Notes under the pieces: model-generated
Told to the model about the DNA's origin: nothing
Databases searched by the model: none
The model's input: the letters and a program-made list of their open reading frames with translations, nothing else
NCBI GenBank assembly: GCA_943350175.1
Contig: CALQZX010000001.1
Location: forward strand, 97,702-161,701
DNA length: 64,000 nucleotides
Reading direction: 5' to 3'
Origin: Parcubacteria group bacterium
Lineage (GTDB): Bacteria > Patescibacteriota > Microgenomatia > UBA1400 > PJMF01
Part shown: positions 3,771 through 64,000 of the stretch, one piece after another
Layout of the letters: each line of letters starts with the position of its first letter
Numbering within the stretch: the first letter of the stretch is position 1
Program-made: the position numbers and the translations under genes

Positions 3771-3811
3771 AATTTGTAATTCAAATCAACAAAATTCAAG
3801 GATCGATTGTA

Positions 3812-5200: not shown

Positions 5201-5202
5201 AT

Positions 5203-49219: not shown

Positions 49220-50290
49220 ATGAAGAATTGGCAACTAATTAAGAGTAATCCGCTTCTTAAAGAGCGTTTTTTACTTCGTGAAAAGGTAACTGATTCAATT
49301 CGTTTATTCTTCAAAAGTAATGGTTTTCATGAAATGGAAACACCACTTATGGTTGCTGCACCAGGCGCCGAACCATACTTAAATCTCTTCGAAACTTCCT
49401 TGCAATTGCCTGATGGTCAGGCCAAGCAAGCTTATTTTCTAACCAGTCCTGAGTATGCCCTTAAAAAATTATTAGCAGCTGGCTTTGGTAGTATTTTTGA
49501 AATTTGCAAAACTTTTCGAAATCGAGAAAGTTTGGGCGGTACTCATAATCCAGAGTTTACCATTTTAGAGTTTTATCATAGTCAGGCTAATTATTTAGAT
49601 GTGATGAATGATTTTGAAAAAATGCTCTCTTTTATTTGCCAGACTTTAAAAATCGATGCTAAGAATTTTGTTTATCAAGGCAGGACTTTTGATTTAAGCT
49701 CTCCTTATTTAAGAATGAGCGTGGCTGAATTATTTCAAAAATATTTAAATTTGAACGCTGATGAGCTTTTGAATCTCGCAGCTCTTAGAAATAAAGCAAA
49801 AACTTTGGGTTATGATTTATCTGGTGTTGAGAACTTGTCTGCAGATTTAGCTTGGGAAGAAATTTACAATCAGCTCTTCCTGAACGAAATTGAGTCAAAA
49901 TTGGCAGAATTCAATCAGCCAGTCATTGTCTGTGATTATCCAGCTCCTCAGGCAGCTTTGGCTAGAAAAAAGACAGACGATCCTCGTTTTGCCGAACGCT
50001 TTGAAGTTTATCTGGGCGGCATGGAACTGGGCAATGCTTTTGGTGAATTGATTGATGCGGATGAGCAAAAAAAACGCTTAGAAGCTGATTTGCAGTTGCG
50101 CAAGGAACTTGGCAAAAAAGAACAAAAAATAGATCAGGATTTTATTGCTGCTTTGGAGTCAGGTTTGCCAGAATGTAGCGGTATGGCGGTTGGTATTGAT
50201 CGCTTAATTATGCTTTTTGCTGATGTAAGTAATATCGATGAAGTTTTACTTTTTCCAGCCAGTGAGTTATTTTCCCCCTTCGGGGACTAG
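49220..50290 (+). CDS. epmA: Elongation factor P--(R)-beta-lysine ligase (EpmA/PoxA, truncated class II LysRS paralog)
   Basis: 356 aa. Class II aaRS catalytic core without an anticodon-binding domain (FRNRE motif 2, GMAVGIDRL motif 3). Immediately upstream of efp. Confidence 0.75.
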   Translation: MKNWQLIKSNPLLKERFLLREKVTDSIRLFFKSNGFHEMETPLMVAAPGAEPYLNLFETSLQLPDGQAKQAYFLTSPEYALKKLLAAGFGSIFEICKTFRNRESLGGTHNPEFTILEFYHSQANYLDVMNDFEKMLSFICQTLKIDAKNFVYQGRTFDLSSPYLRMSVAELFQKYLNLNADELLNLAALRNKAKTLGYDLSGVENLSADLAWEEIYNQLFLNEIESKLAEFNQPVIVCDYPAPQAALARKKTDDPRFAERFEVYLGGMELGNAFGELIDADEQKKRLEADLQLRKELGKKEQKIDQDFIAALESGLPECSGMAVGIDRLIMLFADVSNIDEVLLFPASELFSPFGD

Positions 50291-50372
50291 GCGGGCGTGT
50301 CAAGCTTCGCTTGATCCACGACTCGCCGTCGTTGACTAAATCGAGTAGCTTGGCGTAGAATAGCAGAATCTT

Positions 50373-50942
50373 ATGTCAACAACAAAAGCCGGTAATATCA
50401 AAAAAGGTTCTTATATCCTCTATAAGGATTTGCCTCACTACGTCATCAAGACCCAGTTTGTCTCTCCAGGTAAGGGTTCAGCTTTTACCAGAGTTAAGAT
50501 GCGTGACATGCGCAATGGCTCTACTCTAGAATTTAACTTCAAATCTCATGACAACATTGAAGAATTAGACGTTGAAACCAAAGAAATGCAATTTCTCTAT
50601 CTTGATGGTGGCGACGTTGTTTTCATGGATCCACGTACTTACGAACAAATGACCGTTCCTGGTCATATTTTGGACGACAAAGTTCAAATGCTCACTTCTG
50701 AAATCAAAGTTTATTTAACTGTTTATGATGAAAAAGTGATCGGTGTGGTTTTGCCACCAAAAGTCAGAATGGTTGTCGCTGATGCTCAAGATGCTATCTC
50801 TGGTGATCGTCAAACTGCTGGCAAAAAACCAGTGACTATGGAGAGTGGATTGATCGTGCAAGCTCCTCTATTTATTCATACTGGTGATACTCTTTTGATT
50901 GATACAGAAACTGCTGATTACGTTTCTAGAGTTAATGATTAA
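50373..50942 (+). CDS. efp: Elongation factor P
   Basis: 189 aa. The KOW-like N-domain with the SPGKGSAF loop (modifiable Lys) and OB domains II/III. Confidence 0.9.
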   Translation: MSTTKAGNIKKGSYILYKDLPHYVIKTQFVSPGKGSAFTRVKMRDMRNGSTLEFNFKSHDNIEELDVETKEMQFLYLDGGDVVFMDPRTYEQMTVPGHILDDKVQMLTSEIKVYLTVYDEKVIGVVLPPKVRMVVADAQDAISGDRQTAGKKPVTMESGLIVQAPLFIHTGDTLLIDTETADYVSRVND

Positions 50943-51074
50943 TTGGAGGCTATCAAAAGTTTATTTTTTGATATGCACAGCATCTTTCATACCAGCTCCT
51001 TTTTTGTTTTGCAAAAAAGTAGGGTCTGAAATATAATATCGCTGGTCTCGCGAGAGATTTTGTATTTTTAACAA

Positions 51075-51147
51075 GGGTCCGTAGCTCAGTCGGTAGAGCA
51101 GAAGCCTTTTAAGCTTTGTGTCGTGGGTTCGAGTCCCACCGGACTCA
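51075..51147 (+). tRNA. tRNA-Lys (anticodon TTT)
   Basis: GGGTCCGTAGCTCAGTCGGTAGAGCA, anticodon arm GAAGC-CTTTTAA-GCTTT, T-arm GTGGGTTCGAGTCCCAC, acceptor CGGACTC-A. Confidence 0.85.
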
Positions 51148-53037
51148 CAAGTTAGCAGCATTTGCCCCGAACTGTTTCAGTTCGTCTTCATGCAAAACCT
51201 TTTTTCTTGCCATGTTGATAAGGATTTGCTGCGGCAGTCGCAGATAAATATCAATTTCGTACGGAACCATTTGTTCTCGATCATTTAGTCCAATTGTCCC
51301 TGCTGTGTGGAGAGTCATTCCAGATATCTGCAGTTTATTCTCAGGCCTATTACTGTAATTGCCGGTTTTTCTTCTTCCTGGAATCTTGTCAGAAGGATCG
51401 GGTCTTCTAGAATGAACAACAATGCCATCGATAATCATGTGAAGAATCTCAAAGATTTTTTCTCTGTCCTCTTGGATATCATTGAGTTTGTCGACATATT
51501 TTTGAGAAAATAGCTCAAGTGAAATCTCATAGGCTTGAAGATTTGCTTTTTGACCAATTTGTAATTCCAACTTTTCTTGTTCCTCGGACAACCTTTTTTG
51601 TTCCAAGTCATAATCTTTCACTTTAGCAAGCATGGTGTCGGTATCAATAATTCCAAACTCATGCTGTTCTTTGACTCTACTAATCATGTTTGGAAGTGCA
51701 TTTAGCAACCTACGGAGTTCATCTCTTCTATCTCTGAGTCTGGTGAGCTCAATTTTATTGGACTCAAGTTCCCTTTGATAGTCAAATACTGACTTTGGAT
51801 CTAGCAAAAGATTTCGCACATACTCAACAACAAATTCCTCAATTTTATCTGCTGGCAAGGGCAAAACATTGCATGGATAGCTTGTCTTTCGAGCATTTCT
51901 GTTGCCACATTTGTAATAATGACTAAACCGACCAGTTGATTTGACTTTTTTTCGATCGCCGACCCATGTAGAAAGATCTCTCATTAGCATGGTTTTTCGA
52001 CAATGACTGCATCTAAGCAATCCGCCAAGTAAATAAACATTTTTACTGTTTTGAGGTAAAGCTATAACCTTGTTGTATTTTGGTTTCTCCTTGAGAGAAT
52101 TTGCTGCCATTTTGAACAAATAATCATCAATGATAGCCTGATGTCTATGTGGAGATAGTTTCCATTTACTTGGTTCAACTCTTTTGCCATTTTCATTTTT
52201 CCCATAGTAATATTTGCCAAGATAGACCTCATCTTGAAGAATCTTTGCGACTACATTCGCTCGCCAAAAATATGCGGTGTTTTTCTTTTGACTTGTTCCT
52301 CGTCTTTTTTTGTAAAAAACAGCGGAGGCCTCTGGTGAAAGAACTTTTTTGGACGCTAAGTGATCAGCGATTTGTTGCTCAGTGTAATTCTGGGTAACAA
52401 ACATGTCGAAGATATTGCGTATAACTAGAGCTTCTTCTTCTAAAATCTCTATTGTTCCATCCAACTTCTTTTTGTAACCAAAAGGAGGGGCACTTCCCAT
52501 CCACACACCTTGCTTTACCGCTTCTCTTCGCCCATCTTGTGTTCTTAGTTTTGTGGTTTCAATTTCAAGCTCAGCAATGACTCCAATAATTCCAAGCATG
52601 GCTTTACCAAAAGGAGTTGATGTATCAATACTCTCATTTGCCGATAAAAACTCAACCTTATTTTTCTCAAGATAGCCAATAATATTGAGCAGTTCCTGCA
52701 ACCTTCTGGCAAAACGATCAATTTTGTACACAACTACTAGATCAAAAGGCTTTTTGTCGCTGTTGGCTAGTTCTTCAGTGAGACGGCGAAATGCTGGACG
52801 CTCAAGCATTGGGGTAGTTCCACTAATGTCGTCCTTGAAGATAAACTTATCATCAACTATATATTTATCTCTGCCATCGGGAAATTTCTTTGATTGAACA
52901 AGACTCCTTATGGCTTGCTCTTGTAAGTCCAGACCATACTTTTCCTTCTGATCCTCAGTAGATACCCTCAAGTAAAGGGCTACTCGCTTCTGCTCATTAT
53001 CTTCATTATTCATTTTTTGCATTCTTCTAATAAACAA
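51145..53037 (-). CDS. Large serine recombinase (site-specific integrase/resolvase family)
   Basis: 630 aa. N-terminal resolvase catalytic domain VALYLRVSTEDQ (Ser nucleophile), recombinase domain, Cys-rich zinc ribbon (CSHCRK...CGNRNARKTSYPC), coiled-coil. The stop codon overlaps the last 3 nt of tRNA-Lys(TTT). Confidence 0.85.
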   Translation of the reverse strand: MFIRRMQKMNNEDNEQKRVALYLRVSTEDQKEKYGLDLQEQAIRSLVQSKKFPDGRDKYIVDDKFIFKDDISGTTPMLERPAFRRLTEELANSDKKPFDLVVVYKIDRFARRLQELLNIIGYLEKNKVEFLSANESIDTSTPFGKAMLGIIGVIAELEIETTKLRTQDGRREAVKQGVWMGSAPPFGYKKKLDGTIEILEEEALVIRNIFDMFVTQNYTEQQIADHLASKKVLSPEASAVFYKKRRGTSQKKNTAYFWRANVVAKILQDEVYLGKYYYGKNENGKRVEPSKWKLSPHRHQAIIDDYLFKMAANSLKEKPKYNKVIALPQNSKNVYLLGGLLRCSHCRKTMLMRDLSTWVGDRKKVKSTGRFSHYYKCGNRNARKTSYPCNVLPLPADKIEEFVVEYVRNLLLDPKSVFDYQRELESNKIELTRLRDRRDELRRLLNALPNMISRVKEQHEFGIIDTDTMLAKVKDYDLEQKRLSEEQEKLELQIGQKANLQAYEISLELFSQKYVDKLNDIQEDREKIFEILHMIIDGIVVHSRRPDPSDKIPGRRKTGNYSNRPENKLQISGMTLHTAGTIGLNDREQMVPYEIDIYLRLPQQILINMARKKVLHEDELKQFGANAANL

Positions 53038-53063
53038 GGATGCAGTACCTAGAACTATATGAA

Positions 53064-53453
53064 CTAGTGCTGGTCGACTTGTTTATAGAGGTGATAAAGG
53101 AGCCTGTCGTTCTCAGTCTTCGCCGATTTGACGAAAACTCCAATTTGCTGATCCTTACCCCTGTAATCTCTATATCTCAAAGGCTTTTCTGTATCAATTT
53201 GCATAGAGACAACCTCAAACTTATCAAAATCAAAGATCTGTTCTTTGCTCTCAAGTTTGGATTGAAGCTCAATTATTTCTTCCGTCTCAAAGTCAGTTTG
53301 ATCTTTCTTAGCAATTACCAGTGAATCAAAGTTTTCGTATGCTGATTGATGAAAGTAAGGATAAATCTCAATCCTCTGTTTGAGAGGATTAGCCATGATC
53401 TTCAGTAGCTTTGGTTTTACCACAATCTTCGGCAGCTTAGTTTTTGCCTTCAT
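53064..53453 (-). CDS. Hypothetical protein
   Basis: 129 aa, Lys-rich N-terminus. No motif. Confidence 0.4.
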   Translation of the reverse strand: MKAKTKLPKIVVKPKLLKIMANPLKQRIEIYPYFHQSAYENFDSLVIAKKDQTDFETEEIIELQSKLESKEQIFDFDKFEVVSMQIDTEKPLRYRDYRGKDQQIGVFVKSAKTENDRLLYHLYKQVDQH

Positions 53454-53599
53454 TGTGCCAATTATAACTTTTCAATCAAACTTCTTCTTGGGCAAACTAG
53501 CACGATAGTGCGAAATTGCATTTGGGTAGTGAAACCTACGGAAGTATAATGGTAAGAATCGCATAAAAAGCGGGAATACAAGAATGTAAGAATAACGCC

Positions 53600-55969
53600 A
53601 TGGACAAGTCAATCTTTTCAGAACGAGATATTTGCACAAAATATATAGCCCCCGCTTTGGTTCGTTCTGGATGGAATGTTGAAACTCAAATTCGTGAAGA
53701 AGTTTTTTTCACTAAAGGAAGAATTATTGTCCAAGATAAAGTGGTAAAGCGAGGTCAGCCTAAGAGAGCCGACTATATTCTCTACCATAAACCAAACCTA
53801 CCACTTGCCATAATTGAGGCTAAAGACAACAATCATTCGGTTGGTGCAGGCATGCAACAAGGCCTTGAATACGCTGAAACTCTCGATATTCCATTTGTTT
53901 TCAGTTCTAACGGAGACGGCTTCATTTTTCATGACAGGACCGGCTTATCAAGTGAGATTGAAAAACAACTGAGTCTTGATGAATTTCCAACTCCTCAAGA
54001 ACTCTATCAGAAATTTCTTCGTTGGAAACACATTACCCCTGAAGAGGAAGCTATCGTCACTACAGACTATCATGTGGATATTCGTGGTAAGGGACCTCGT
54101 TATTACCAGCAAATAGCCATCAACCGCACGATTGAGGCTGTTGCCAACGACCAAGACAGGATTTTATTAGTCATGGCTACCGGCACAGGTAAAACTTACA
54201 CCGCCTTTCAAATCATGTGGCGACTTTGGAAGTCACGATCAAAGAAACGCATTCTTTTCTTAGCTGATCGTAACATTCTCATTGATCAAGCAAAAAACAA
54301 CGACCTCATTCCTTTTGGTGACAAATTGACTAAGATTACCAATCGTCATGTTGATAAATCTTATGAAGTTTACATGTCACTCTATCAAGCTGTCACTGGC
54401 ACTGAGGAGGAAAGCAATATCTACAAACAATTTAGTCCTGACTTCTTTGACCTCATTATTATTGATGAGTGTCACCGAGGTAGTGCCAGAGCTGACTCGG
54501 CTTGGCGAGAAATTCTTGAATACTTTGGCAATGCAACTCAGATCGGCCTGACTGCTACACCAAAGGAAACCAAAGATGTCTCAAATATCGATTATTTTGG
54601 TGAGCCAATCTACACCTACTCACTCAAGCAAGGTATTGATGATGGCTTTTTGGCCCCTTACAAAGTCGTCCGAATTACCATTGACCGAGATGTTGAGGGT
54701 TACAGACCTGAAAATCATAAAGTTGATGTCTACGGGCGTGAAATTCCTGACGAAGTCTACTACGGTCCTGACTTTGATCGAACGCTCATTATTGATGATC
54801 GCACTAAATTAGTGGCCAAAAAAGTAGTTGAATATCTGCGAGAAACAGATCCCTTCTCCAAGACAATCATTTTTTGTATTGATGTGGAACATGCGGAACG
54901 CATGCGGCAGGCTCTTGTCAATGAAGCTCAAGATTTGTATCAGCAGAATCCTCATTATGTGATGAGAATTACTGGTGATGATGAGGCCGGTAAGGCTGAA
55001 TTAGACAACTTTATTGATCCAGAAAGTAAATATCCCGTTATTGTTACCACTTCCAAACTTTTGACTACTGGCGTGGATGTTCAGACCTGTAAAGTAGTCG
55101 TGCTCGATGCCAATATCAACTCAATGACTGAGTTCAAGCAGATTGTTGGTCGAGGCACTCGCCTGAGAGAAGACTTTGGTAAATATTTTTTCACCATTAT
55201 GGATTTCCGCAACGCTACTGATAATTTTGCTGATCCGAACTTTGACGGTATGCCTGAATCAATTTACGAGCCAGTGATGCCCGCTGAAATCGAGGGAAAA
55301 TTGAAAGAGGAAGCATCTATCTCTACCGCAAGTGAAATCCTATATGATCCAACTGAACCAGCAGATCCACTGGTACTCAGGGAGAATGGCCAGCCATATA
55401 CAACCAGTCGTAAATATCAAGTTCGTGATGTTTTAGTCAAAGTTACAGGTGAACAAGTTCAATTTCTTGATGAGCAAGGTAAGTTGATTGCTCAGAATTT
55501 GGAAGAGTTTTGCCAGAGTAATCTCAAGAATGTCTATCCTGAGCCAGAAGATTTTGTTCATGCTTGGAACCAATCAGATAACAAGAAGTTCTTACTATCA
55601 GAACTTGAGGTTCAAGGTATATTTGTTGAAGAACTGCTTGATAGCATAGATAAAAAACTTGATGAGTATGATTTGATTCTCAAGGTGGGATATGGGAAAG
55701 AAGCCAAAACTCGACAACAAAGAAGAACTAAAATCAATCTTTCTCAGATTCTGCCAAACCTTTCACCTTTGCAATCAAATCTAATCGAAGTTCTACTTGG
55801 AATCTACGAGGCTGAAGGTGTTTCTCATATTGAGGATGTAGCGGTTCTAGAAGTCGGAGCTTTTGCCCAATTTGGTCGTCCTTACGAGATTCTCACTCAA
55901 GTGTTTACCAATCGTGAAGAGTATGCTGAGGCGGTTCAAACAATTATCAAAGCACTCTATCAGGAATAA
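53600..55969 (+). CDS. hsdR: Type I restriction enzyme R subunit
   Basis: 789 aa. N-terminal PD-(D/E)xK nuclease (ADYILYH...IIEAKD), SF2 helicase motifs (ATGTGKT, DECHRG, LTATP, QIVGRGTR). Confidence 0.9.
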   Translation: MDKSIFSERDICTKYIAPALVRSGWNVETQIREEVFFTKGRIIVQDKVVKRGQPKRADYILYHKPNLPLAIIEAKDNNHSVGAGMQQGLEYAETLDIPFVFSSNGDGFIFHDRTGLSSEIEKQLSLDEFPTPQELYQKFLRWKHITPEEEAIVTTDYHVDIRGKGPRYYQQIAINRTIEAVANDQDRILLVMATGTGKTYTAFQIMWRLWKSRSKKRILFLADRNILIDQAKNNDLIPFGDKLTKITNRHVDKSYEVYMSLYQAVTGTEEESNIYKQFSPDFFDLIIIDECHRGSARADSAWREILEYFGNATQIGLTATPKETKDVSNIDYFGEPIYTYSLKQGIDDGFLAPYKVVRITIDRDVEGYRPENHKVDVYGREIPDEVYYGPDFDRTLIIDDRTKLVAKKVVEYLRETDPFSKTIIFCIDVEHAERMRQALVNEAQDLYQQNPHYVMRITGDDEAGKAELDNFIDPESKYPVIVTTSKLLTTGVDVQTCKVVVLDANINSMTEFKQIVGRGTRLREDFGKYFFTIMDFRNATDNFADPNFDGMPESIYEPVMPAEIEGKLKEEASISTASEILYDPTEPADPLVLRENGQPYTTSRKYQVRDVLVKVTGEQVQFLDEQGKLIAQNLEEFCQSNLKNVYPEPEDFVHAWNQSDNKKFLLSELEVQGIFVEELLDSIDKKLDEYDLILKVGYGKEAKTRQQRRTKINLSQILPNLSPLQSNLIEVLLGIYEAEGVSHIEDVAVLEVGAFAQFGRPYEILTQVFTNREEYAEAVQTIIKALYQE

Positions 55970-55971
55970 TT

Positions 55972-57396
55972 ATGTCACTCGGAAGCAAAGTCAAAACAAT
56001 TCAAAACATTATGCGTCAGGATACTGGTGTTGATGGTGACGCTCAGCGTATTTCCCAACTTGGTTGGCTAATATTTCTCAAAATCTTTGATGACCGAGAA
56101 AAAGAGCTGAGTACCATGAACCTCGGCTATGTTTCTGCCGTGCCTGAGGGCTTGAAGTGGCGAGATTGGGCGGCAAATCCAGAAGGCATGACTGGTGATG
56201 AGCTACTCAATTTCATCAACAATCAGCTATTCCCAAAACTCAAGAACCTAGAGGTCAGAGAAAATGACAAAAGGACCCTGATTTTACAAGCAGTGTTCTC
56301 TGATTCTTTCAATTACATGAAATCAGGCACTCTGCTGAGACAGATCATCAATGAACTCAATGATATTGATTTCAAGTCATCCAAAGATCGTCACATGTTC
56401 AATGATGTTTATGAACAAATTCTAAAAGACTTGCAAAGTGCTGGCAATGCCGGTGAGTTTTATACACCCAGACCAGTAACTCAATTTATTGTGGAGATGA
56501 TAAATCCACAGCTTGGTGAAAAAGTTTTTGATCCAGCTTGTGGTACTGGTGGATTCTTGACCTCAGTAATTGACCACCTGAGAAAAGATCAGATCAAAAC
56601 TGCTGAAGATGAAAAGATCTTAGCTGAGAGTCTGTATGGCATTGAGAAAAAGCCCCTCCCTCACTTGCTTTGCACAACTAACTTGATTTTACATGGGATT
56701 GATGACACTTCTAACATTATCAGGGGTAATTCACTAACTAGACCACTTAGAGATTACACAGAGTTAGATCGCATGAATGTAGTAGTAACCAACCCACCAT
56801 TTGGTGGTGTTGAGGAAGATGGTATTGAACTCAACTTCCCTAAGAAATTCCAGACTAAAGAAACGGCTGATCTTTTCTTGGTCCTAATTATTCATTTGCT
56901 AAAGAATGGTGGTCGAGCTGGCCTAGTTCTTCCTGACGGAACACTCTTTGGTGAGGGCGTAAAAACCGCCATCAAGGAGAAACTGCTTGAAGAATGTAAT
57001 CTGCACACTATTATCCGTCTGCCTGAAGGCGTTTTCTCACCTTACACAGGTATCAGAACAAATCTCTTGTTTTTTACCAAAGGTGAGCCAACTAGTGAAG
57101 TGTGGTTTTATGAACATAAGTATCCAGAAGGATATAAATCCTATTCAAAAACCAAACCAATGTCACTCAAGGAGTTTGATGCTGAAAGAGAATGGTGGAA
57201 TGATCGCTTGGAGGGTGAAAATAGCTGGAAAGTCAGTATTGATGAGCTGCGGGCAAGAGATTTCAATTTAGATATCAAGAATCCAAGTAAATCAATGCGG
57301 CATAGCTCAAAGAATCTAGAGGACATATTGTCTCAATTTGAGGAGAATCTTGACGAGATTCACAGTATTTTTGACTCATTAGTAAAGGAACTATAG
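55972..57396 (+). CDS. hsdM: Type I restriction-modification system DNA methyltransferase subunit
   Basis: 474 aa. N6-adenine MTase motifs DPACGTGGFL (motif I) and NPPFG (motif IV). Confidence 0.9.
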   Translation: MSLGSKVKTIQNIMRQDTGVDGDAQRISQLGWLIFLKIFDDREKELSTMNLGYVSAVPEGLKWRDWAANPEGMTGDELLNFINNQLFPKLKNLEVRENDKRTLILQAVFSDSFNYMKSGTLLRQIINELNDIDFKSSKDRHMFNDVYEQILKDLQSAGNAGEFYTPRPVTQFIVEMINPQLGEKVFDPACGTGGFLTSVIDHLRKDQIKTAEDEKILAESLYGIEKKPLPHLLCTTNLILHGIDDTSNIIRGNSLTRPLRDYTELDRMNVVVTNPPFGGVEEDGIELNFPKKFQTKETADLFLVLIIHLLKNGGRAGLVLPDGTLFGEGVKTAIKEKLLEECNLHTIIRLPEGVFSPYTGIRTNLLFFTKGEPTSEVWFYEHKYPEGYKSYSKTKPMSLKEFDAEREWWNDRLEGENSWKVSIDELRARDFNLDIKNPSKSMRHSSKNLEDILSQFEENLDEIHSIFDSLVKEL

Positions 57397-57398
57397 CT

Positions 57399-57947
57399 AT
57401 GAAATACAAATTAGGCGACTTCTTCAAACAGAGAAAAGGGTTCATTCAAATTGAAGATACTAAGGAGTATAAACGCTGCCGTTTGCAGGTTAGAGCTCGA
57501 GGTATTGTCTTGAGAGATATTGTCCCCGGATCAAAAATAAAAACAAAAAAGCAGCAGGTTTGTCTAGCTGGTGATTTTGTTGTGGCTGAGATCGATGCAA
57601 AAGTTGGAGGTTTTGGTTTTATCCCAAATGAACTTGATGGTTCTATTGTTAGCAGCCATTACTTTATTTTTGAAATAGATGAAAGCACCGTCTTAGCAGA
57701 ATATTTTGCTCTAATAATAAAATTAGAAGCTTTTCAAAGCAAATTTCGTGCAAGAGGTTCAACAAATTATGCAGCAATCAGGCCACATGACTTTTTGAAC
57801 ATTGATGTGGAAATTCCCAATCCAACAAAACAAACTGAAATAGTAAACAAGTACAAAAAAGCATCCAAACTAGAAGAAAAAATAAAAAACCAACTTGAGC
57901 TTCTTGATGAATTGAAAGAGAAAATTATCATCTATGAACAGGAATAG
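57399..57947 (+). CDS. hsdS: Type I R-M specificity subunit, half-size (single target-recognition domain)
   Basis: 182 aa, about half the usual HsdS length. One TRD followed by a conserved coiled-coil region (EIPNPTKQTEIVNKYKKASKLEEKIKNQLELLDELKEKII). Confidence 0.7.
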   Translation: MKYKLGDFFKQRKGFIQIEDTKEYKRCRLQVRARGIVLRDIVPGSKIKTKKQQVCLAGDFVVAEIDAKVGGFGFIPNELDGSIVSSHYFIFEIDESTVLAEYFALIIKLEAFQSKFRARGSTNYAAIRPHDFLNIDVEIPNPTKQTEIVNKYKKASKLEEKIKNQLELLDELKEKIIIYEQE

Positions 57948-59685
57948 GGTAAAAAAAATATTTATCAGAAATTTCAGAAGTATTGGTCCAGAAGGTATAT
58001 GGATTGATTTGAATCATATTGTTGTTCTGGTTGGTCAAAATAACAGCGGAAAAAGCTCAATTCTTCGTGCCTTGAAGGTTATTACAGAAGGTGAAGGATC
58101 ATCTAAACTCACAATTGAAGACTTCCACCAAAACAAATTGGATAATTGCCCTGAGGTAATTTTGGAAACTTATGTTTTTGATCCAGCACTTCCAGGTACA
58201 GAGTGGATTATCACCGAACCAACAGGTGAACAATTTGTTAGAGAACGATGGCTTTGGGCTCTTCCAGATGTCTCACCAGTGAGAGTTGGTTGGAATCAGT
58301 CAAAAAATGGTTGGGCTTCTGCAGATACTAAGGAAGAAAAGTACCCATGGGGACCAGACAATATCGCTATGGCTCGAAGACCAGAGCCTCACGAAGTAAA
58401 CCCATTTGATGATCCAGAAAAGCAAGCTAATGAGATTGTAAAAATTCTCAATGCCCTGGTAAAAAGCAAGATATCTGCTCTTATATCTGACGACCAACTA
58501 AAACAGGAAAGAAAATACCAACAAATTGTTGATGAATTGAAGGTTCTAAGAAAAAGCGTGGTTGATGATGCCAAAGTTGAAATCGAAGAAATTGAGACGA
58601 AGCTCAATGATCTTGTTTCATCAGTTTTTGCTGGAAATAAAATTGAATTTGATCCACAACCTGAAGAAAAAGTTGAGGATGCTGTTCAAGCTGCACTAAT
58701 CAACATGAATGCTCAGCTCAAAATGGGGCCAGAAGGTGGTTATAAAGGAACGATTGAAAAACAAGGAAGTGGAGCTCGAAGAACATTGCTGTGGATTGCA
58801 TTGAAATTGACAGTCGAATTAGGTGGCGGAAAGAAAAAATCGAGAGGCAAAAAAGCTGAAACGAGTGTTGTTGAAGATCGTCCTCATGTTCTTTTGTTGA
58901 ACGAGCCAGAGATTTGTTTGCATCCAAGTGCGGTTAGAGACGCAAGAGATACTTTATACAAACTACCAGAGACCGGTAATTGGCAAGTTATGGTCACATC
59001 TCATTCGCCAATATTTATTGATATATCAAAAGATAATACAACCATCGTTAGAGTAGAAAAAGATATTACTGGAAAAGTATCAAGTGAAACAGTATTTCGT
59101 CCTGACTCAGCTCAGCTGACAGACGAAGAAAAGCTTCAATTGAAGTTGCTAAATATTTTTGATCCATATTTTGCAGAATTCTTCTTCGCGAAGCACATTA
59201 TTGTTGTAGAGGGTGATACTGAATACTCAGCATTTCGCTACCTACTTCAAGAAAAAGGTAATAGCTCAGTTCATATTCTGAGAGCGAGAGGTAAGGCCCC
59301 AATTGCTACGATTATAAAAATTCTCAATCATTTCAAATCAAGTTATGCTGTTTTGCATGATAGTGACACTCCAAAGTTAGATTCAGGAAAGAAAAACCCA
59401 GCTTGGACCGTAAATCAGTCTATTTTAGATGTGTTCTCTTCAAGAGAGTCTGGAACAAAAGCTCGGCTAGTAGCTAGCGTTCCTGATTTTGAACGAGCAT
59501 GTTTTGGTAGACAAGTGGAAAACGACAAGCCATATGAAACCATTACTGAACTATCTAATAGTCCAACTATGAAAGCTAGAACTGAACAGCTGCTAGACGC
59601 ATTGATTCAATTTGATAAGCCTTTGCCTGTTGGATTTATTGAATGGGGAAATCTTTCTGATCTTGAAAAGCAAGCTACAAAATAA
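57934..59685 (+). CDS. OLD-family nuclease (N-terminal ABC ATPase + C-terminal TOPRIM)
   Basis: 583 aa. Walker A VLVGQNNSGKSS, signature-like QGSGARRTL, Walker B/D-loop HVLLLNEPE, H-loop MVTSHSP. C-terminal TOPRIM with IIVVEGDTEYSAF (Glu) and VLHDSDTPK (DxD). Confidence 0.75.
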   Translation: MNRNRVKKIFIRNFRSIGPEGIWIDLNHIVVLVGQNNSGKSSILRALKVITEGEGSSKLTIEDFHQNKLDNCPEVILETYVFDPALPGTEWIITEPTGEQFVRERWLWALPDVSPVRVGWNQSKNGWASADTKEEKYPWGPDNIAMARRPEPHEVNPFDDPEKQANEIVKILNALVKSKISALISDDQLKQERKYQQIVDELKVLRKSVVDDAKVEIEEIETKLNDLVSSVFAGNKIEFDPQPEEKVEDAVQAALINMNAQLKMGPEGGYKGTIEKQGSGARRTLLWIALKLTVELGGGKKKSRGKKAETSVVEDRPHVLLLNEPEICLHPSAVRDARDTLYKLPETGNWQVMVTSHSPIFIDISKDNTTIVRVEKDITGKVSSETVFRPDSAQLTDEEKLQLKLLNIFDPYFAEFFFAKHIIVVEGDTEYSAFRYLLQEKGNSSVHILRARGKAPIATIIKILNHFKSSYAVLHDSDTPKLDSGKKNPAWTVNQSILDVFSSRESGTKARLVASVPDFERACFGRQVENDKPYETITELSNSPTMKARTEQLLDALIQFDKPLPVGFIEWGNLSDLEKQATK

Positions 59686-59698
59686 TGAAAGGATTCAA

Positions 59699-59911
59699 AT
59701 GCAAAGAATACCAGTAAATTCATCAAATATCGCTGCGATAGGTTACGATCCAGACTCAAGTATTTTAGAGATTGAATTCAATGATGGAAGTATTTACCAA
59801 TATTTTGGGGTTCCTGAGTTGGTCCATCAAGAATTGATGGATGCTGGATCACATGGAAAGTATTTTGCCCAGAATATCAAAAATGATTATGAATATAAAA
59901 AGGTAAACTAA
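59699..59911 (+). CDS. KTSC domain-containing protein
   Basis: From MQRIPVNSSNIAAIGYDPDSSILEIEFNDGSIYQYFGVPELVHQELMDAGSHGKYFAQNIKNDYEY, matching the KTSC consensus. Good RBS (AAAGGA) 8 nt upstream. Confidence 0.6.
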   Translation: MQRIPVNSSNIAAIGYDPDSSILEIEFNDGSIYQYFGVPELVHQELMDAGSHGKYFAQNIKNDYEYKKVN

Positions 59912-59915
59912 TCTT

Positions 59916-60962
59916 ATGCCAAACATCATCTCTCTTGATCAAAAAACCAAAAGAACAAAAGTCAGTCAGTTTGAATTAGACAATGAAATTGTCTTCAATT
60001 ATTTCGATCGGTTATCCTCTGATCAGCGAGATGAGGCCTTTTTTCGGGCAATATACATTGGCGTTTTAGCATTGATGGAAGATAGATTATCTGCATTCTT
60101 GGCTAAAACTCAAAACGAACTGGGCACGCAGCTTGAAAGTCTCAAAATGATCTTTGAGATGAAGAAAGAAATCTTCTTCAAAACTGCTGTCAAAGGTATG
60201 ATTGCTGAAGACGACATTGCCAATTACTTGAATAGCTATTTTCTGGACAAGAAACTTCGTGACAAAGCAGAACTCACAGGAACCGAGGCTGGCGTAATTT
60301 CAGGCAATAAAACAGGTGATATTGTTTGTTCGGTGGATGGTGACGAGAAAAAACGAGTGGCCATTGAAATCAAGTTCGATAAGTCTATGAAGCTTGGTGA
60401 TATTAGTGACAAGGATATTTTTACTAAAAAACAAGATACTGCTTGGAGTCAGCTAATTGAGGCTTCTGCTAACAGAGGCACACAAGTCGCAATTATTGTT
60501 TTCGATAGGTCCTTAGTTGATGGGAGTATCCTCAAATTCACTGATTCCGTTGGTTTTATCTCTGGTGTTGGGTTTGTTGTGGTTGTTGATTCTCAAAAAG
60601 GTGATTATTCAAACTTAGTTGTTGCCTATAACTTGGCTAGAGACATAGTTCTTCATGCCAAGCAACTTGATTTGGATGATAAGGTGCTAACCATGCTTTG
60701 TAAACGAATGATCAGGGATATTGACATGCTGCTTGGTATTCGCCAGCTTGTGGTCCAAAACATCGAAACAAGCCAAGAAATAATGGCAAGAGTTCAAAAA
60801 TCATTACTACTAATGGAATTCAATCAAGAGTACCTAAGCAAATTCCTAAAGGATGGCAAGCTGTCTCAAACTGATTTACTGGCTTTTTACTCAGGTGAAG
60901 ATGTGAAAGCTAAGTACAGTGCGATTCAGCCTGAAATTGATTCCTTGCTCAGCAGTAACTAG
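59916..60962 (+). CDS. Hypothetical protein with predicted PD-(D/E)xK nuclease motif
   Basis: 348 aa. Central GDIVCSVDGDEKKRVAIEIKFDK has the D...(E)xK arrangement of restriction-endonuclease-like folds. Helical N- and C-terminal regions are unknown. Confidence 0.45.
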   Translation: MPNIISLDQKTKRTKVSQFELDNEIVFNYFDRLSSDQRDEAFFRAIYIGVLALMEDRLSAFLAKTQNELGTQLESLKMIFEMKKEIFFKTAVKGMIAEDDIANYLNSYFLDKKLRDKAELTGTEAGVISGNKTGDIVCSVDGDEKKRVAIEIKFDKSMKLGDISDKDIFTKKQDTAWSQLIEASANRGTQVAIIVFDRSLVDGSILKFTDSVGFISGVGFVVVVDSQKGDYSNLVVAYNLARDIVLHAKQLDLDDKVLTMLCKRMIRDIDMLLGIRQLVVQNIETSQEIMARVQKSLLLMEFNQEYLSKFLKDGKLSQTDLLAFYSGEDVKAKYSAIQPEIDSLLSSN

Positions 60963-61213
60963 CGAGCTTCCCAAGAGAAGCCGCATTTTTGACAGACATA
61001 TAGATTCTTAGGCTTTTTGACCCAAAGCACCCTGACAAAAAACAGTGCTGTCATAGCATTTCTACGAAAAGCATCACCTGTTGATTCTTTGACTATGCTG
61101 AGATCCTTACTACCGCATTTTGGGCATGGTGGATTCTTGTAGGTCAATGACCAGTGCAGATACCATTTGAAGAATTTTTTGATTTTTTCCATCATACATT
61201 TGTCCCTTTCCAA
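60959..61213 (-). CDS. Small zinc-ribbon protein
   Basis: 84 aa. CPKCG...(~34 aa)...CQKCG, a four-Cys zinc ribbon. Confidence 0.45.
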   Translation of the reverse strand: MERDKCMMEKIKKFFKWYLHWSLTYKNPPCPKCGSKDLSIVKESTGDAFRRNAMTALFFVRVLWVKKPKNLYVCQKCGFSWEAR

Positions 61214-61310
61214 ACTACTTTGTTGAGTAGTCTATTTAGTTTGAAACACGAGCAATATTATATCAAAACTCTACGAGTTGTGCGTTTACGATTTGTCACA
61301 AATCTTCAGA

Positions 61311-61562
61311 ATGGGATCTATGCTGTCAAAGCAAAGATTTACCATTATCTTAGGAAAGAACATTCGCCGAATTCGAGAAGAAAAAGGCATGACTCAGGAT
61401 GAGCTATCAGCTGAATGTGGTTTTTATCGGACCTATATCAATTTGGTAGAAACAGCTAAAAGGACACCTTCAAGCTTTTCACTATACAGAATTGCTAGAG
61501 GCCTGAAGATTTCTGTATCAGAGCTTTACCCAAAGACAGTGGGCTCTGACTTAGAAGATTAG
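61311..61562 (+). CDS. XRE-family HTH transcriptional regulator
   Basis: From MGSMLSKQRFTIILGKNIRRIREEKGMTQDELSAECGFYRTYINLVETAKRTPS. The ORF-track start at 61278 is upstream of the family N-terminus. Confidence 0.6.
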   Translation: MGSMLSKQRFTIILGKNIRRIREEKGMTQDELSAECGFYRTYINLVETAKRTPSSFSLYRIARGLKISVSELYPKTVGSDLED

Positions 61563-61588
61563 TTTTTTGATAACAATTATCTTTGATT

Positions 61589-61612
61589 GCCGGTATTCAT
61601 ACCGGTTTTTTG
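61589..61612 (+). terminator. Rho-independent terminator after the XRE gene
   Basis: gCCGGTAttcaTACCGGtttttt. Confidence 0.55.
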
Positions 61613-61619
61613 TTTTATT

Positions 61620-61772
61620 GGGTAAAGGGGTGGGTAAAAGTTGGGTAAAAGCTAGGGGAAATTGCCTTTACTGGACTTTTTATGATTGTAATTGCAGGTA
61701 AAGGCTGGGTAAAATTCGACTTTTAGGAATTTATTGTTCGGTGAAAGGTCGGTGAAAGATCGGGAAAAACGG
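61620..61772. repeat. Iteron-like direct-repeat array (GGGTAAAAG-type, 11-bp period) upstream of the Panacea-domain gene
   Basis: GGGTAAAGGGG|TGGGTAAAAGT|TGGGTAAAAGC|TAGGGGAAATT, then GGTAAAGGCTGGGTAAAATT, then GGTGAAAGGTCGGTGAAAGATCGGGAAAAACGG. At least 7 copies of a GGKDAAAR core. Confidence 0.55.
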
Positions 61773-61883
61773 ATATTTCCTATTTTTGAATTTATACAAT
61801 CAGACTCTAGTCACTTTCATGAGATACACTTTGATGTAGTAGAATACATCCACATTAGCCCAATAATGGTCTATATTGTATAT

Positions 61884-62387
61884 ATGACAACTTTATCTGT
61901 AAAAAACACCAGTAAAGTTTTTCAAATTGCCAACTACTTCATCAAGAAGGCTCAAGAGGAAAACAAAGAACTAACAAATAAAAAGTTGCAAAAACTTTTA
62001 TATTATTCTCAAGCTTGGTCGGTTACTTTGAGGGACAAATCAATCTTCGAAGACAATATCGAGGCTTGGGTTCATGGTCCAGCTATTCGCTCTGTTTATC
62101 ATCGATTCTCAGATTTTGGGAGAGAAAACCTTGCTTCAAAAGTTGATGTCACTAGTGCTCATTTCGATGAAATAACTACTGATGACAAAGAGTTGCTAAA
62201 TAAAATCTGGGAAATTTATGGAAAATATACAGCTAATGACTTAGAGGTCATTTCGCACTCCGAATCCCCTTGGCAGGATGCTAGAGAAGGCTTGGAGCCT
62301 TACGAAGCTTCTGCAAATATAATCACAATTGAATCCATGAAACAATATTATGGGCAAAGACAAAAAGAAGCGAAAAGCTCTTCGTAA
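61884..62387 (+). CDS. Panacea (DUF4065, SocA/PanA-like) domain protein, putative antitoxin
   Basis: Start at MTTLSVKNTSKVFQIANYFIKK. KLQKLLYYSQAWSVTL...EAWVHGPAIRSVYHRF matches the DUF4065 consensus closely. Confidence 0.7.
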   Translation: MTTLSVKNTSKVFQIANYFIKKAQEENKELTNKKLQKLLYYSQAWSVTLRDKSIFEDNIEAWVHGPAIRSVYHRFSDFGRENLASKVDVTSAHFDEITTDDKELLNKIWEIYGKYTANDLEVISHSESPWQDAREGLEPYEASANIITIESMKQYYGQRQKEAKSSS

Positions 62388-62862
62388 AGATAAAGCTCAA
62401 GAGTTTCATCAAATTCAAAATACTATTCACGAAGAGAATGTTGAGAGAAGCATTAGGTCTAAATATAAAATTCCTGGCAGTGTCGCTATTCCAACTATTG
62501 AAGAAGATCTATTACAAAAGATTGGCCAGTCTTCATTTTCTCTAATATTTCATTATTACAATCATAATATTTGTGCCCTTACTAAGGTAAACACTACCTC
62601 TCAAGCTGAACAAATTGTAAAAATACTAGACAACCTATCAAAATCCACGCCAAATAATGTGCATGATTTGATTAGGGATAGTATCCACAGAAAAAATGCT
62701 CAGGGAGACTATGCTCGTCTTTTTAGCAGTTTGCCGGAAGATACTGAGATTATTCATGAGTCAAGTTTTTGTGATGAAGGAAGAGTTTTCTTTTTCACCA
62801 TAAATGGCATAAAACAAAATTTTGCCTGCGTAGTCTCAATCAACCCACTGCATCTTTCATAA
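62350..62862 (+). CDS. Hypothetical protein overlapping the Panacea gene 3' end, candidate toxin partner
   Basis: 170 aa. Single Met start with 38-nt overlap onto the upstream gene. Basic N-terminus (MGKDKKKRKALRKDK). No recognisable motif. Confidence 0.4.
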   Translation: MGKDKKKRKALRKDKAQEFHQIQNTIHEENVERSIRSKYKIPGSVAIPTIEEDLLQKIGQSSFSLIFHYYNHNICALTKVNTTSQAEQIVKILDNLSKSTPNNVHDLIRDSIHRKNAQGDYARLFSSLPEDTEIIHESSFCDEGRVFFFTINGIKQNFACVVSINPLHLS

Positions 62863-62946
62863 CAATTTATTTTATTTTCAGACGGTCTATCCCCTCACAT
62901 CTGAGCACGAGCTGTGCTTCTTGATTGACAGATAGTTCTGGTCCGT

Positions 62947-64000
62947 TTACGCTATCCCACCAATTGGGACTGAAGAAGTCTCAAAGTGAGGTTTTAGCCC
63001 TAAATATGGGGCTAATTTAGTTGTTCCAGAAGTTAAATCTGCATAGGTCGGCATACTATCAAAAATGAGTCCAAAGAAGGCTGCTCGTTTGAGTGGATTA
63101 GCTTGATCTATCAGTAATTCCTCTATGTGTTCCAGAAAATATCCAATGTGCTCCATGACATTACTCATATTGACTGATTTCTCGTCACTCTTGCGTCTTA
63201 ATTTTTCCTGTTCCAGTTCCTGAACATCTGTCTCTGCTTTAACTAAATCTGTCTCAAGATATTTAATTGCCACTTCGGATGTCAGATACCTAATTTTGTC
63301 TGCTGTAGCCTGTGCAGTGGCCTTTAGCTCCCGTATTTTGGTATCTATGATAGATTCATCCTCTTGTTTACTTTCAACCCGCTCATGCCATAGAGTTATG
63401 ACATATTTTTTAAGATCGTCGATATATTGCTGATCAAAGTTAAGGTTTCGCACAAATGTCTCAACAGCCTCTTCGAGCTCTTTTGAAGGTACTCTAAAAT
63501 AGTGTCCGCGTTTATTGCAGTGGTAAGCAGGATAATAGGCGCCGCTATGTCCCCGCGAGGCACTGCCAAATAAAGGTTTGCTACAATGAGGGCACATGAT
63601 TACCCGCTTGTATGGGAACTTGGGATTATTAATTAGCTTCTTGGTCATCCATTCAGGTAATTTCTTTTTCCATAACTTTACCTCGCCATCATTCTCAGAA
63701 AGTGTGAGTTTACCTTTATTCGCCTTATTAAACACTTCAATTGAAATAAGTCCGTCAAACTTACCTTTTACCACATTCCCTTCCGTCCACTTTTCACTAT
63801 TTATCCCAGCATAAATCGGGTTTTGAATATATCGCCAAAACTGCTTTATTCTTAGTCCTTTTCCTCCCCGCTCTCCAAGAACCTTAGTTCTATCTTGTGG
63901 GTTTCTGATATATCTCTTACGCGTTTTGTAGCCCATCGCATTTATTTCATCAACGATTTCCTGATCTGACAAAGTGCCACGAGCACGTAGCTCAAACATT
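62947..64000 (-). CDS. Large serine recombinase, C-terminal ~350 aa (N-terminus beyond window end)
   Basis: Recombinase domain, zinc ribbon (CPHCSKPLFGSASRGHSGAYYPAYHCNKRGH) and coiled-coil, the same architecture as the 51145..53037 protein. The reading frame runs to the window edge. Confidence 0.75.
   Translation of the reverse strand, partial: MFELRARGTLSDQEIVDEINAMGYKTRKRYIRNPQDRTKVLGERGGKGLRIKQFWRYIQNPIYAGINSEKWTEGNVVKGKFDGLISIEVFNKANKGKLTLSENDGEVKLWKKKLPEWMTKKLINNPKFPYKRVIMCPHCSKPLFGSASRGHSGAYYPAYHCNKRGHYFRVPSKELEEAVETFVRNLNFDQQYIDDLKKYVITLWHERVESKQEDESIIDTKIRELKATAQATADKIRYLTSEVAIKYLETDLVKAETDVQELEQEKLRRKSDEKSVNMSNVMEHIGYFLEHIEELLIDQANPLKRAAFFGLIFDSMPTYADLTSGTTKLAPYLGLKPHFETSSVPIGGIA

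Follow-up and report, generated by a model that had tools for sequence, protein, structure and literature searches.

In the stretch of DNA analysed here (the window: 64,000 nucleotides of contig CALQZX010000001.1, assembly GCA_943350175.1, from a genome of the candidate phyla radiation, CPR), a tRNA-Lys(UUU) gene meets the 3' end of a large serine recombinase (LSR) gene, LSR1, which is followed by a set of defence genes and by a second LSR gene, LSR2, that is cut by the edge of the window. We conclude that the region very probably consists of two independent integrative elements arranged in tandem at the 3' end of tRNA-Lys(UUU), each mobilised by its own LSR: element A, which carries LSR1 and the defence genes, and element B, which begins with LSR2 and lies mostly beyond the window. 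A prediction made earlier from the sequence alone (the original prediction) had described an integrative element with defence cargo at this tRNA 3' end, and this description is upheld by empty sites in relatives and by an identical copy at a different tRNA. The same prediction had the island bounded by two recombinases, a view that has to be revised, as LSR2 is instead the first gene of the second, independent element. The features that define the two elements within the window are as follows.

51075–51148, + strand: tRNA-Lys(UUU), the integration target, whose T-arm and acceptor 3' strand would form the left arm of the bacterial attachment site attB (ARAGORN)
51126–51178, no strand: left attachment site (attL) of A, with tRNA arm 51126–51146, crossover AC 51147–51148 and P' arm 51149–51178
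51145–53013, − strand: LSR1, large serine recombinase as encoded in the integrated state, 622 aa with the ATG at 53013 as start (Pfam, gene callers)
62867–62959, − strand: detached 3' tail of the LSR1 gene, WDSVNGPELSVNQEAQLVLRCEGIDRLKIK and stop, in frame with LSR1 only in the circular element
62929–62960, no strand: right attachment site (attR) of A, with P arm 62929–62958 and crossover AC 62959–62960
62961–64000, − strand: left end of B with the 3' 350 codons of LSR2 (contig continuation L002; Pfam)

Element A has precise ends, empty sites in relatives and a second copy

Element A occupies positions 51149–62958 (11.81 kb), with an AC core at 51147–48 and 62959–60. A block of 11,819 nt (window 51142–62960) recurs with 0 mismatches in the Woesebacteria metagenome-assembled genome (MAG) GCA_018062735.1 (contig JAGORS010000003.1), where it sits at tRNA-Lys(CUU) in a cluster of tRNA-Leu(GAG), tRNA-Leu(CAG), a cytidylate-kinase-like gene, tRNA-Arg(UCG) and tRNA-Lys(CUU). 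The identity stops exactly after ...GCTATCCCAC (62960), which is the predicted crossover, and its opposite limit falls within the tRNA end shared by both tRNAs. The right flank of this copy is unrelated, has a GC content of 49.5% and encodes an alpha/beta-hydrolase-like protein, and a Logan contig has the same far junction of A as GCA_018062735.1. An identical copy with precise ends implies that A is a discrete unit that was very recently present at two different tRNA-Lys genes. The divergence of the NCBI contig after 62960 might have been a strain polymorphism at one and the same locus, but this reading was rejected, since the left side of that contig shows tRNA-Lys(CUU), a second integration site.

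The insertion-free relatives to which the original prediction had pointed do exist. Of 19 related loci, 18 have the gene for elongation factor P (EF-P) in front of tRNA-Lys(UUU). By its EF-P relatives, the source of the window belongs with CPR/Microgenomates-type MAGs labelled Pacebacteria, Microgenomatus and Woesebacteria. At least nine relatives have an empty site, in which the tRNA-Lys ends in ...GGACTCAC and is followed by T or A, an AT-rich stretch and a terminator hairpin, with no recombinase. Together with the identical copy of A elsewhere, these empty sites amount to a presence/absence polymorphism with precise ends, which is characteristic of an integrative element. Composition had been proposed as a further line of evidence and gave a divided result. 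GC content does not differ between the island and the rest of the window or the host and was discarded as an island signal; tetranucleotide usage does deviate, with z = 2.5–7 across 52.5–70 kb. The suggested direct repeat of the tRNA 3' end, which would have served as attR, is absent from the window and up to the end of the contig, where the sole match, a 13-mer containing 2 mismatches, is no better than chance. Its absence refutes nothing because the attachment (att) sites of serine recombinases share only a 2-bp core, and the repeat test belongs to tyrosine integrases.

The attachment sites of A can be written to the base. At the attL junction, ...CTCAC is followed by AAGTTAGCAGCATTTGCCCCGAACT, an arrangement shared by four loci of the LSR1 family, which involve three different tRNAs; across the LSR1-family loci, the conserved tRNA-side junction is ...TCAC followed by A(A/G)TTAGCAG.ATTT.CCCCGAACT. 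The far-end arm reads AGATAGTTCTGGTCCGTTTACGCTATCCCAC in the window (62930–62960), and the P arm is conserved in four relatives (L025, L026, L113, and L114). When joined, the two arms of A form a quasi-palindrome of ~52 bp centred on AC (AGTTC.GG ... AC ... CC.GAACT), with a dyad match of 16/30 compared to 7.2 ± 2.4 in shuffled sequences, 0 of 2000 of which reach 16. As read from the sequence, A thus appears to have a quasi-palindromic phage-type attachment site (attP) of ~50 bp, an AC core at both junctions and no direct repeat. Compared to the tRNA arm, the P arm has its GAAC motif shifted outwards by 4 nt, away from the core. In the A118/LI integrase model of serine integrases, the outer motif is likewise located further out in attP than in attB, which the GAAC spacing of A resembles. 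LSR1 would recombine the ~52-bp attP with an attB whose left arm consists of the T-arm and acceptor end of the tRNA, and the crossover of A would take place at the discriminator A73 and the next base. The predicted junction in the circular form of A is GCTATCCC-AC-AAGTTAGC (…GGTCCGTTTACGCTATCCC-AC-AAGTTAGCAGCATTTGCCCC…).

Several MAG contigs of relatives (L005, L006, L012, L018, and L020) terminate 100–600 nt past tRNA-Lys(UUU). Contig breaks at this position are consistent with a strain-variable insertion hot spot.

Element B and the order of insertion

Element B extends from 62961 to ~69567 (~6.6 kb), with ~5.6 kb past the window edge. The continuation beyond 64000 was taken from locus L002, which provides the remaining 6.6 kb of the 168-kb metagenome contig (ena:ERZ27280308:k141_215323; window position = L002 position + 52349). 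The LSR2 open reading frame (ORF; 62947–64629, − strand) encodes 560 aa, and its last four codons and stop lie within the P arm and AC core of A. Pfam assigns it Resolvase (1.8e-7) and Recombinase (6.4e-7) domains and a zinc ribbon (0.0044) below the cut-off, the catalytic-serine motif is IRISSLKQ, and the protein shares just 21% identity with LSR1. Past the window, LSR2 is followed by a 52-aa ORF (orf52), a gene for an 868-aa membrane ATPase, a Replic_Relax gene, small ORFs and a DUF2958 gene. The far end of B is sharp: DNA homology stops at L002 17218 (= window 69567), directly after ...GAGGGGTAAGACCCCTT.

A metagenome scan recovered 80 LSR2 loci at 60–85% identity. Among the 61 non-redundant loci with enough sequence, 56 have the 3' end of a convergent tRNA gene within −15 to +40 nt of the recombinase end, and the tRNAs used by this family are those for Glu, Lys, Gln, Asp, Arg, Ser and Ile. 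The conserved core of these widespread CPR elements is DUF2958-orf83-Replic_Relax-ATPase-orf52-LSR2. In L014, whose EF-P is 85% identical, an LSR2 homologue (83%), orf52 and the ATPase gene are found directly at the same tRNA-Lys and without A; the junction between tRNA and B reads GGACTC-AC-CAAATGGGACT. In the window, the junction between A and B is GCTATCCC-AC-CAATTGGGACT, which recurs only in a duplicate of this contig, while the other far-end contigs (L003 and L004) join A to other DNA. Without A, the junction of the tRNA with B is predicted to be …GGACTCAC-CAATTGGGACT….

Two explanations had been offered in the original prediction for the pair of recombinases, a composite of two elements or one element with dual recombinases. 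A and B occur separately, so that the former is borne out; the latter does not agree with the finding of A alone at another tRNA and of B-type elements alone at tRNAs. A single composite element of 18.4 kb, in which LSR1 integrates and LSR2 serves resolution, inversion or an alternative target, would be in line with the recurrence of the A-then-B order in a distant genome (L026/L027), where an LSR1 homologue (56%) is located at tRNA-Lys(CUU) and the far end abuts an LSR2 homologue (37%) with orf53. This order is also expected if the crossover of A lies upstream of that of B. The composite reading is quite improbable in light of the 100% identical A without B at another tRNA, the B-type elements directly at tRNAs in 56/61 loci, including the same tRNA-Lys in L014, and the A-type elements without any B in L025 and L109–L114. 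Moreover, the two halves of the attP dyad of A lie exactly at 51149 and 62958, so that B is not enclosed by them.

For two independent elements, the order of arrival has to be considered. B was probably resident at tRNA-Lys(UUU) first, and A would later have crossed over at the AC between the tRNA and B. Alternatively, A may have been the first to insert, at the native tRNA-Lys, followed by insertion of B into the far end of A, where the P arm (AGTTCTGGTCC...CCCAC-CA) would have mimicked a tRNA 3' end. The P arm does resemble a T-arm and acceptor end (GGTTCGAGTCC...CTCAC), followed by CA as in the junctions between tRNAs and B, and either history gives the same final gene order. We nevertheless consider this second history unlikely, since the spacing in the P arm is of the attP rather than the attB type (GAAC displaced outwards by 4 nt), B-type elements usually adjoin a tRNA directly, and A has zero substitutions compared to its second copy, so that its insertion must be very recent.

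The exact crossover of B and the excision of either element are presumptive; in a circular form of B, the LSR2 3' end would be joined to AAGGGGTCTTACCCCTCATTT…. Several points weigh against the interpretation of the region as two mobile elements in tandem and of B as a transfer-type element. The evidence is computational throughout and stems from metagenome assemblies, and no excised circle, attP junction or empty site of the same strain was observed. A dinucleotide matching at both ends of B is found in only 6/11 loci, and the attempt to place the crossover of B in this way was abandoned for that reason. The simplest model of the B crossover requires the tRNA to be followed by a CCA-like sequence, and no such sequence is present in the empty sites of relatives. 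On its right, B is flanked by a gene for a LysM/Ig-like surface protein that has no counterpart downstream of the tRNA-Lys of relatives, and the contig stops 1 kb later; this flank may therefore contain a third element or have been rearranged. As for the functions encoded by B, the Pfam match of Replic_Relax is weak (1.8e-12), the similarity of the ATPase to TrwB/TraD is only at the Walker A level, and its AlphaFold model is poor (predicted local distance difference test score, pLDDT, 60, with the ATPase part <50), so that the fold matches of this model to VirB4 and HerA (TM score ~0.2) are only a hint.

Both recombinase families are associated with tRNA 3' ends

The full LSR1 ORF (51145–53037, − strand) has 630 aa when counted from a TTG codon. 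As the original prediction had noted, its stop falls on the 3' end of tRNA-Lys: the TGA is the complement of 51145–51147, that is, of tRNA nt 71–73 (TCA). Pfam identifies the Resolvase (2.6e-34), Recombinase (PF07508, 5e-18) and Zn_ribbon_recom (PF13408, 3.8e-10) domains, the catalytic-serine motif YLRVSTEDQ (LRVST) is readable in the translation, and the sequence matches in the PDB are large serine integrases, the TP901-1 integrase and SPbeta YokA. By its predicted domains, a serine-bearing resolvase domain followed by Recombinase and a zinc beta-ribbon, LSR1 classifies as a large serine recombinase. Approximately 805 LSR1 homologues were matched, with names from Woesebacteria, Levybacteria and Amesbacteria. 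In 7 of the 8 independent contexts of the family, the 3' ends of the recombinase gene and a tRNA gene come together; the targets are tRNA-Lys(UUU), tRNA-Lys(CUU), tRNA-Ile(UAU) and tRNA-Glu(UUC), and the P' and P arms are conserved. The contexts, with identity to LSR1, are as follows.

Window: tRNA-Lys(UUU)
L024, 84% identical: tRNA-Ile(UAU)
L025 and L026, 59% and 56% identical: tRNA-Lys(CUU)
L109–112 and L114/115, 46% and 41% identical: tRNA-Lys(CUU)
L113, 44% identical: tRNA-Glu(UUC)
L108, the eighth context: no tRNA

The region could also be an old, immobile variable island, with recombinases that were fixed or domesticated or are decaying beside tRNAs. This would be compatible with the lack of an observed circular form, with a GC content equal to that of the host, and with the alteration of the LSR2 C-terminus by the neighbouring element. 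Such a history is extremely improbable, as both LSR ORFs are intact and have their catalytic-serine motifs, an identical 11.8-kb copy is present at another tRNA in another genome, the LSR1 homologue with 84% identity is found at a tRNA-Ile, relatives have empty sites, and contigs labelled with the names of different CPR lineages encode B ATPases of at least 90% identity.

The attP of A would lie inside the last codons of LSR1, and the circular form would encode a 652-aa enzyme from which integration would remove a conserved tail of ~30 aa. In all five mapped far ends (window, L025, L026, L113, and L114), the tail frame is open for at least 24 codons, and stops interrupt both of the other frames. 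Comparison of the tails of the window and L025 gives 5 identical, 10 synonymous and 9 non-synonymous codons; judged by these codons, the pattern is a coding signature that reaches past any plausible att arm. At tRNAs with T71 (Lys tRNAs), the tail would be replaced by a stop provided by the tRNA, and at tRNAs with C71 the LSR1 ORF would read through the antisense strand of the tRNA. The longer LSR1 homologues (637–687 aa) have antisense-tRNA endings of the type ...LW.GR(D/E/G)SNP... (...DSNP... or ...ESNP...), and their lengths would be explained by this read-through. We infer that full-length LSR1 is made from the free circle and that its tail could modulate activity or stability.

A small gene directly upstream of LSR1 (orf129; 53064–53453, − strand) has the same position in close LSR1 relatives, with genes of 120–122 aa in L024, L025 and L026, the last of which encodes a product with 27% identity to that of orf129 (E 4e-17). 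It has no family match in Pfam, PHROGs or NCBIfam, its family is tiny (only 7 representative clusters), and its AlphaFold model is useless (pLDDT 39). By its position, orf129 is a candidate accessory or directionality factor, and orf52 of B is likewise a positional candidate for a directionality factor of LSR2. A third kind of serine recombinase was found in L114 (11813–13434, 536 aa), where it ends inside tRNA-Gly(GCC), ~2 kb from the LSR1-type element at tRNA-Lys(CUU). Convergent overlaps of recombinase and tRNA genes seem to be common in CPR genomes.

Insertion into tRNA genes is classically the work of tyrosine integrases. The use of tRNA genes by large serine integrases is considered unknown, or rare and unproven (Hudson et al., PMC4383910; PMC7192596). 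Among 297 serine-integrase elements, Mageeney et al. (2020) identified 14 at t(m)RNA genes, described such use as previously unreported and requested experimental proof (PMC7192596), and Durrant et al. (2022) do not mention tRNA (PMC10083194). Our literature searches on serine-recombinase or tRNA elements of CPR/Patescibacteria found nothing. Scans of IMG/VR with LSR1 and LSR2 returned no relatives, and there is thus no sign of a phage. LSR1 and LSR2 share with the known large serine integrases (phiC31, Bxb1, TP901-1, A118, SPbeta SprA, TndX, and Ccr) the Resolvase, Recombinase and zinc ribbon domains with a long C-terminal region, as well as the location of the gene at the element edge; A further has in common with them a quasi-palindromic attP of ~50 bp, a 2-bp core and the lack of flanking direct repeats. 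LSR1 and LSR2 differ in that they target tRNA 3' ends and have CPR hosts, and in that the attP of A lies within the 3' coding end of its own recombinase. With the tRNA islands of tyrosine integrases (P4-type, Islander-type), the region has in common the tRNA 3' end, the adjacent integrase gene, defence or accessory cargo, stacked elements and empty sites. The enzyme family and its chemistry are different, the far end has no duplicate of a tRNA fragment, and the tRNA is intact up to the discriminator and not rebuilt from a copy borne by the element.

The SSV-type integrases of fuselloviruses are tyrosine recombinases with attP inside int and tRNA targets, and their integration yields two large inactive gene parts. 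A is similar in that attP lies within the recombinase ORF, so that integration into a tRNA alters the gene product; unlike in the SSV type, LSR1 loses only ~30 C-terminal codons, and all recognisable domains stay intact. The phiRSM group of filamentous Ralstonia phages targets tRNA-Ser. The small serine recombinases of this group have been cited as site-specific integrases (PMC7192596). They resemble the LSRs described here as serine-family recombinases that integrate at a tRNA gene, but are small and resolvase-like and lack the Recombinase and zinc-ribbon domains. As far as can be read from the loci compared, what is unusual about the LSR families of this region is their systematic tRNA specificity and, in the LSR1 family, the embedding of attP in the recombinase gene.

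Putative transfer-type genes of element B and cargo of element A

The ATPase of B combines a 430-aa N-terminal DUF8128 with DUF87, TrwB_AAD_bind and TraG-D_C domains. It is similar to TrwB/TraD/VirD4-like and CedD-like proteins around the Walker A motif, with VirB4 and HerA also among the best matches, and its distant relatives include proteins encoded on plasmids of Bacillus, Streptomyces and archaea. Homologues with 91–92% identity are encoded on contigs labelled Nomurabacteria, and others in WWE3 (75%) and Beckwithbacteria (65%). The high identity across labelled CPR lineages implies a recent spread of B-type elements. The Replic_Relax protein also matches the PHROG 'replication initiation by nicking' (4e-6), and transfer of B might proceed by rolling-circle nicking together with the ATPase. 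In two Nomurabacteria-labelled loci (L116 14298–16630 and L118 7117–9386), the B core (ATPase 92%) is accompanied by a different resolvase, an AbiJ/Abi_C gene and a TrbC/type IV secretion system (T4SS) pilin-like gene. There are thus hints that larger, conjugative versions of B may exist.

The last ~130 nt of B (L002 17065–17218 = window 69414–69567) are a conserved, structured non-coding region. It contains a hairpin, AGGGGYCTTRCCCCT, in which six changes are compensatory, a long-range stem of 11 bp and an invariant TCACCCYGCT; a perfect hairpin of ~10 bp covaries in 16/16 distinct loci, with a mean stem of 9.8 bp compared to 4.3 bp in shuffles. The region has no Rfam match, and no Rfam family was found at E ≤ 0.1 in the whole contig end. 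It is a candidate origin of transfer (oriT), replication origin or non-coding RNA. A possible hitch-hiking of A on B by means of a TCACCCYGCT motif inside A was rejected, as A has only chance-level matches.

Between the mapped ends of B, a single ATPase and a single Replic_Relax protein are encoded, with no other T4SS genes of the kind expected of an integrative and conjugative element (ICE), and A contains no T4SS, relaxase or coupling genes. Actinomycete ICEs (AICEs) such as pSAM2 and SLP1 and integrative and mobilizable elements (IMEs) with their own coupling protein are the systems to which B can be compared. B resembles these in its compact size of 6.6 kb, the tRNA site, a site-specific recombinase, a nicking/replication-type protein and a single membrane ATPase that is DNA-translocase-like. 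It differs from AICEs in that its ATPase is not an FtsK/SpoIIIE-type TraB (FtsK_SpoIIIE E 0.0073, below the threshold) but belongs to the TrwB/VirD4-VirB4-HerA group with DUF8128, and in its CPR host; transfer of B is putative. Of the components of an IME, B contains LSR2 as integrase, a putative relaxase in the weakly matched Replic_Relax (Pfam and PHROG) and a candidate oriT in the terminal region. By definition B is neither an ICE nor an AICE of the TraB type; by analogy, it appears closest in its logic to an IME or AICE.

A broader proposal is tentative, and we regard it as possible at most: CPR bacteria may harbour at least two large, unrelated LSR families dedicated to tRNA 3' ends, which read the T-arm and acceptor as an attB half-site; the tail swap of LSR1 might be a built-in switch between the free and integrated states (e.g. 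for integration/excision bias or stability); and B might be a minimal self-transmissible or mobilizable element that spreads between CPR lineages, and a first candidate vector for these so far uncultured bacteria. The genomes of CPR/Patescibacteria are tiny, genetic tools for them are lacking and little is known of their mobilome; small defence islands and a compact transfer-type element appear to be actively moving among them. The region offers testable attP/attB pairs for new unidirectional integrases aimed at a conserved tRNA motif, a natural example of an integrase gene that would be remodelled by integration, and one identical element caught at two different tRNA-Lys genes.

The cargo of A contains all of the components named in the original prediction, that is, the restriction-modification (R-M) system, the OLD-type nuclease, the zinc-ribbon protein, the XRE regulator and the Panacea pair. 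The repeat array of that prediction consists of only two small sets of 11-nt iterons. The features are as follows.

53600–55969, + strand: hsdR (Pfam; PADLOC REase_I, E=0)
55972–57396, + strand: hsdM (Pfam; PADLOC MTase_I, 2.5e-212)
57399–57947, + strand: half-size hsdS, 182 aa, one target-recognition domain (Pfam; PADLOC Specificity_I, 1.9e-17)
57934–59685, + strand: OLD-family nuclease, overlapping hsdS by 14 nt (Pfam AAA_15 and OLD-like_TOPRIM; PADLOC 'Old', 6.1e-77)
59699–59911, + strand: KTSC-domain protein (Pfam KTSC, 8.7e-28)
59916–60962, + strand: 348-aa protein, ORF at the end of the same operon as KTSC
60959–61213, − strand: zinc-ribbon protein, 84 aa, two CxxC pairs (sub-threshold zinc-ribbon matches only)
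61311–61562, + strand: XRE-type helix-turn-helix regulator, 83 aa as called (Pfam HTH_3, 1.2e-11)
61618–61651, no strand: iterons TTGGGTAAAAG, x3, upstream of the Panacea gene (Tandem Repeats Finder)
61738–61767, no strand: iterons TCGGTGAAAGA, x2.8, upstream of the Panacea gene (Tandem Repeats Finder)
61884–62387, + strand: Panacea/SocA-like antitoxin-domain protein (Pfam SocA_Panacea, 9.6e-23; PHROG 1281, 5e-48)
62350–62862, + strand: 170-aa ORF, overlapping the Panacea gene

HsdR, HsdM and HsdS are encoded together (53600–57947, + strand), as is typical of a Type I R-M operon. The Old nuclease, with hsdS and the KTSC gene as its neighbours, is of the stand-alone (P2 Old-like) class, as it combines an ABC-type ATPase and TOPRIM in one polypeptide and has no adjacent UvrD-type helicase. 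The 348-aa protein belongs to no family in Pfam, PADLOC, PHROGs or NCBIfam; the R-M, Old, KTSC and 348-aa protein genes look like one operon. A terminator hairpin (61589–61606) was found 3' of the XRE gene in a terminator scan. The Panacea protein has a sub-threshold match to the NCBIfam SocA_antitoxin, and the overlapping 170-aa ORF, which has no family match in Pfam, PADLOC, PHROGs or NCBIfam, is a possible toxin partner.

Upstream of the island (window 49220–51148), an EpmA/PoxA-like class II lysyl-tRNA-synthetase paralogue (356 aa), EF-P and tRNA-Lys(UUU) are mutually adjacent. Gene finders also called a 66-aa minus-strand ORF (50961–51161), which lies opposite the tRNA-Lys gene and the spacer upstream of it, in antisense, and is almost certainly spurious. 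None of the other 11 tRNAs of the window is adjoined by a recombinase. Among these, tRNA-Lys(CUU) (2136–2210) matches the 3' end of the occupied tRNA-Lys(UUU) at 21/22 positions and is unoccupied here; in GCA_018062735.1 the identical copy of A uses this site, as do LSR1 relatives at other loci. Between tRNA-Lys(CUU) and tRNA-Arg(UCG), which in GCA_018062735.1 are spaced by only 34 nt, the window contains a region of low GC content (2247–7984; 0.33–0.35, tetranucleotide z = 2.6) with four long minus-strand ORFs and no recombinase, which may be another insertion.

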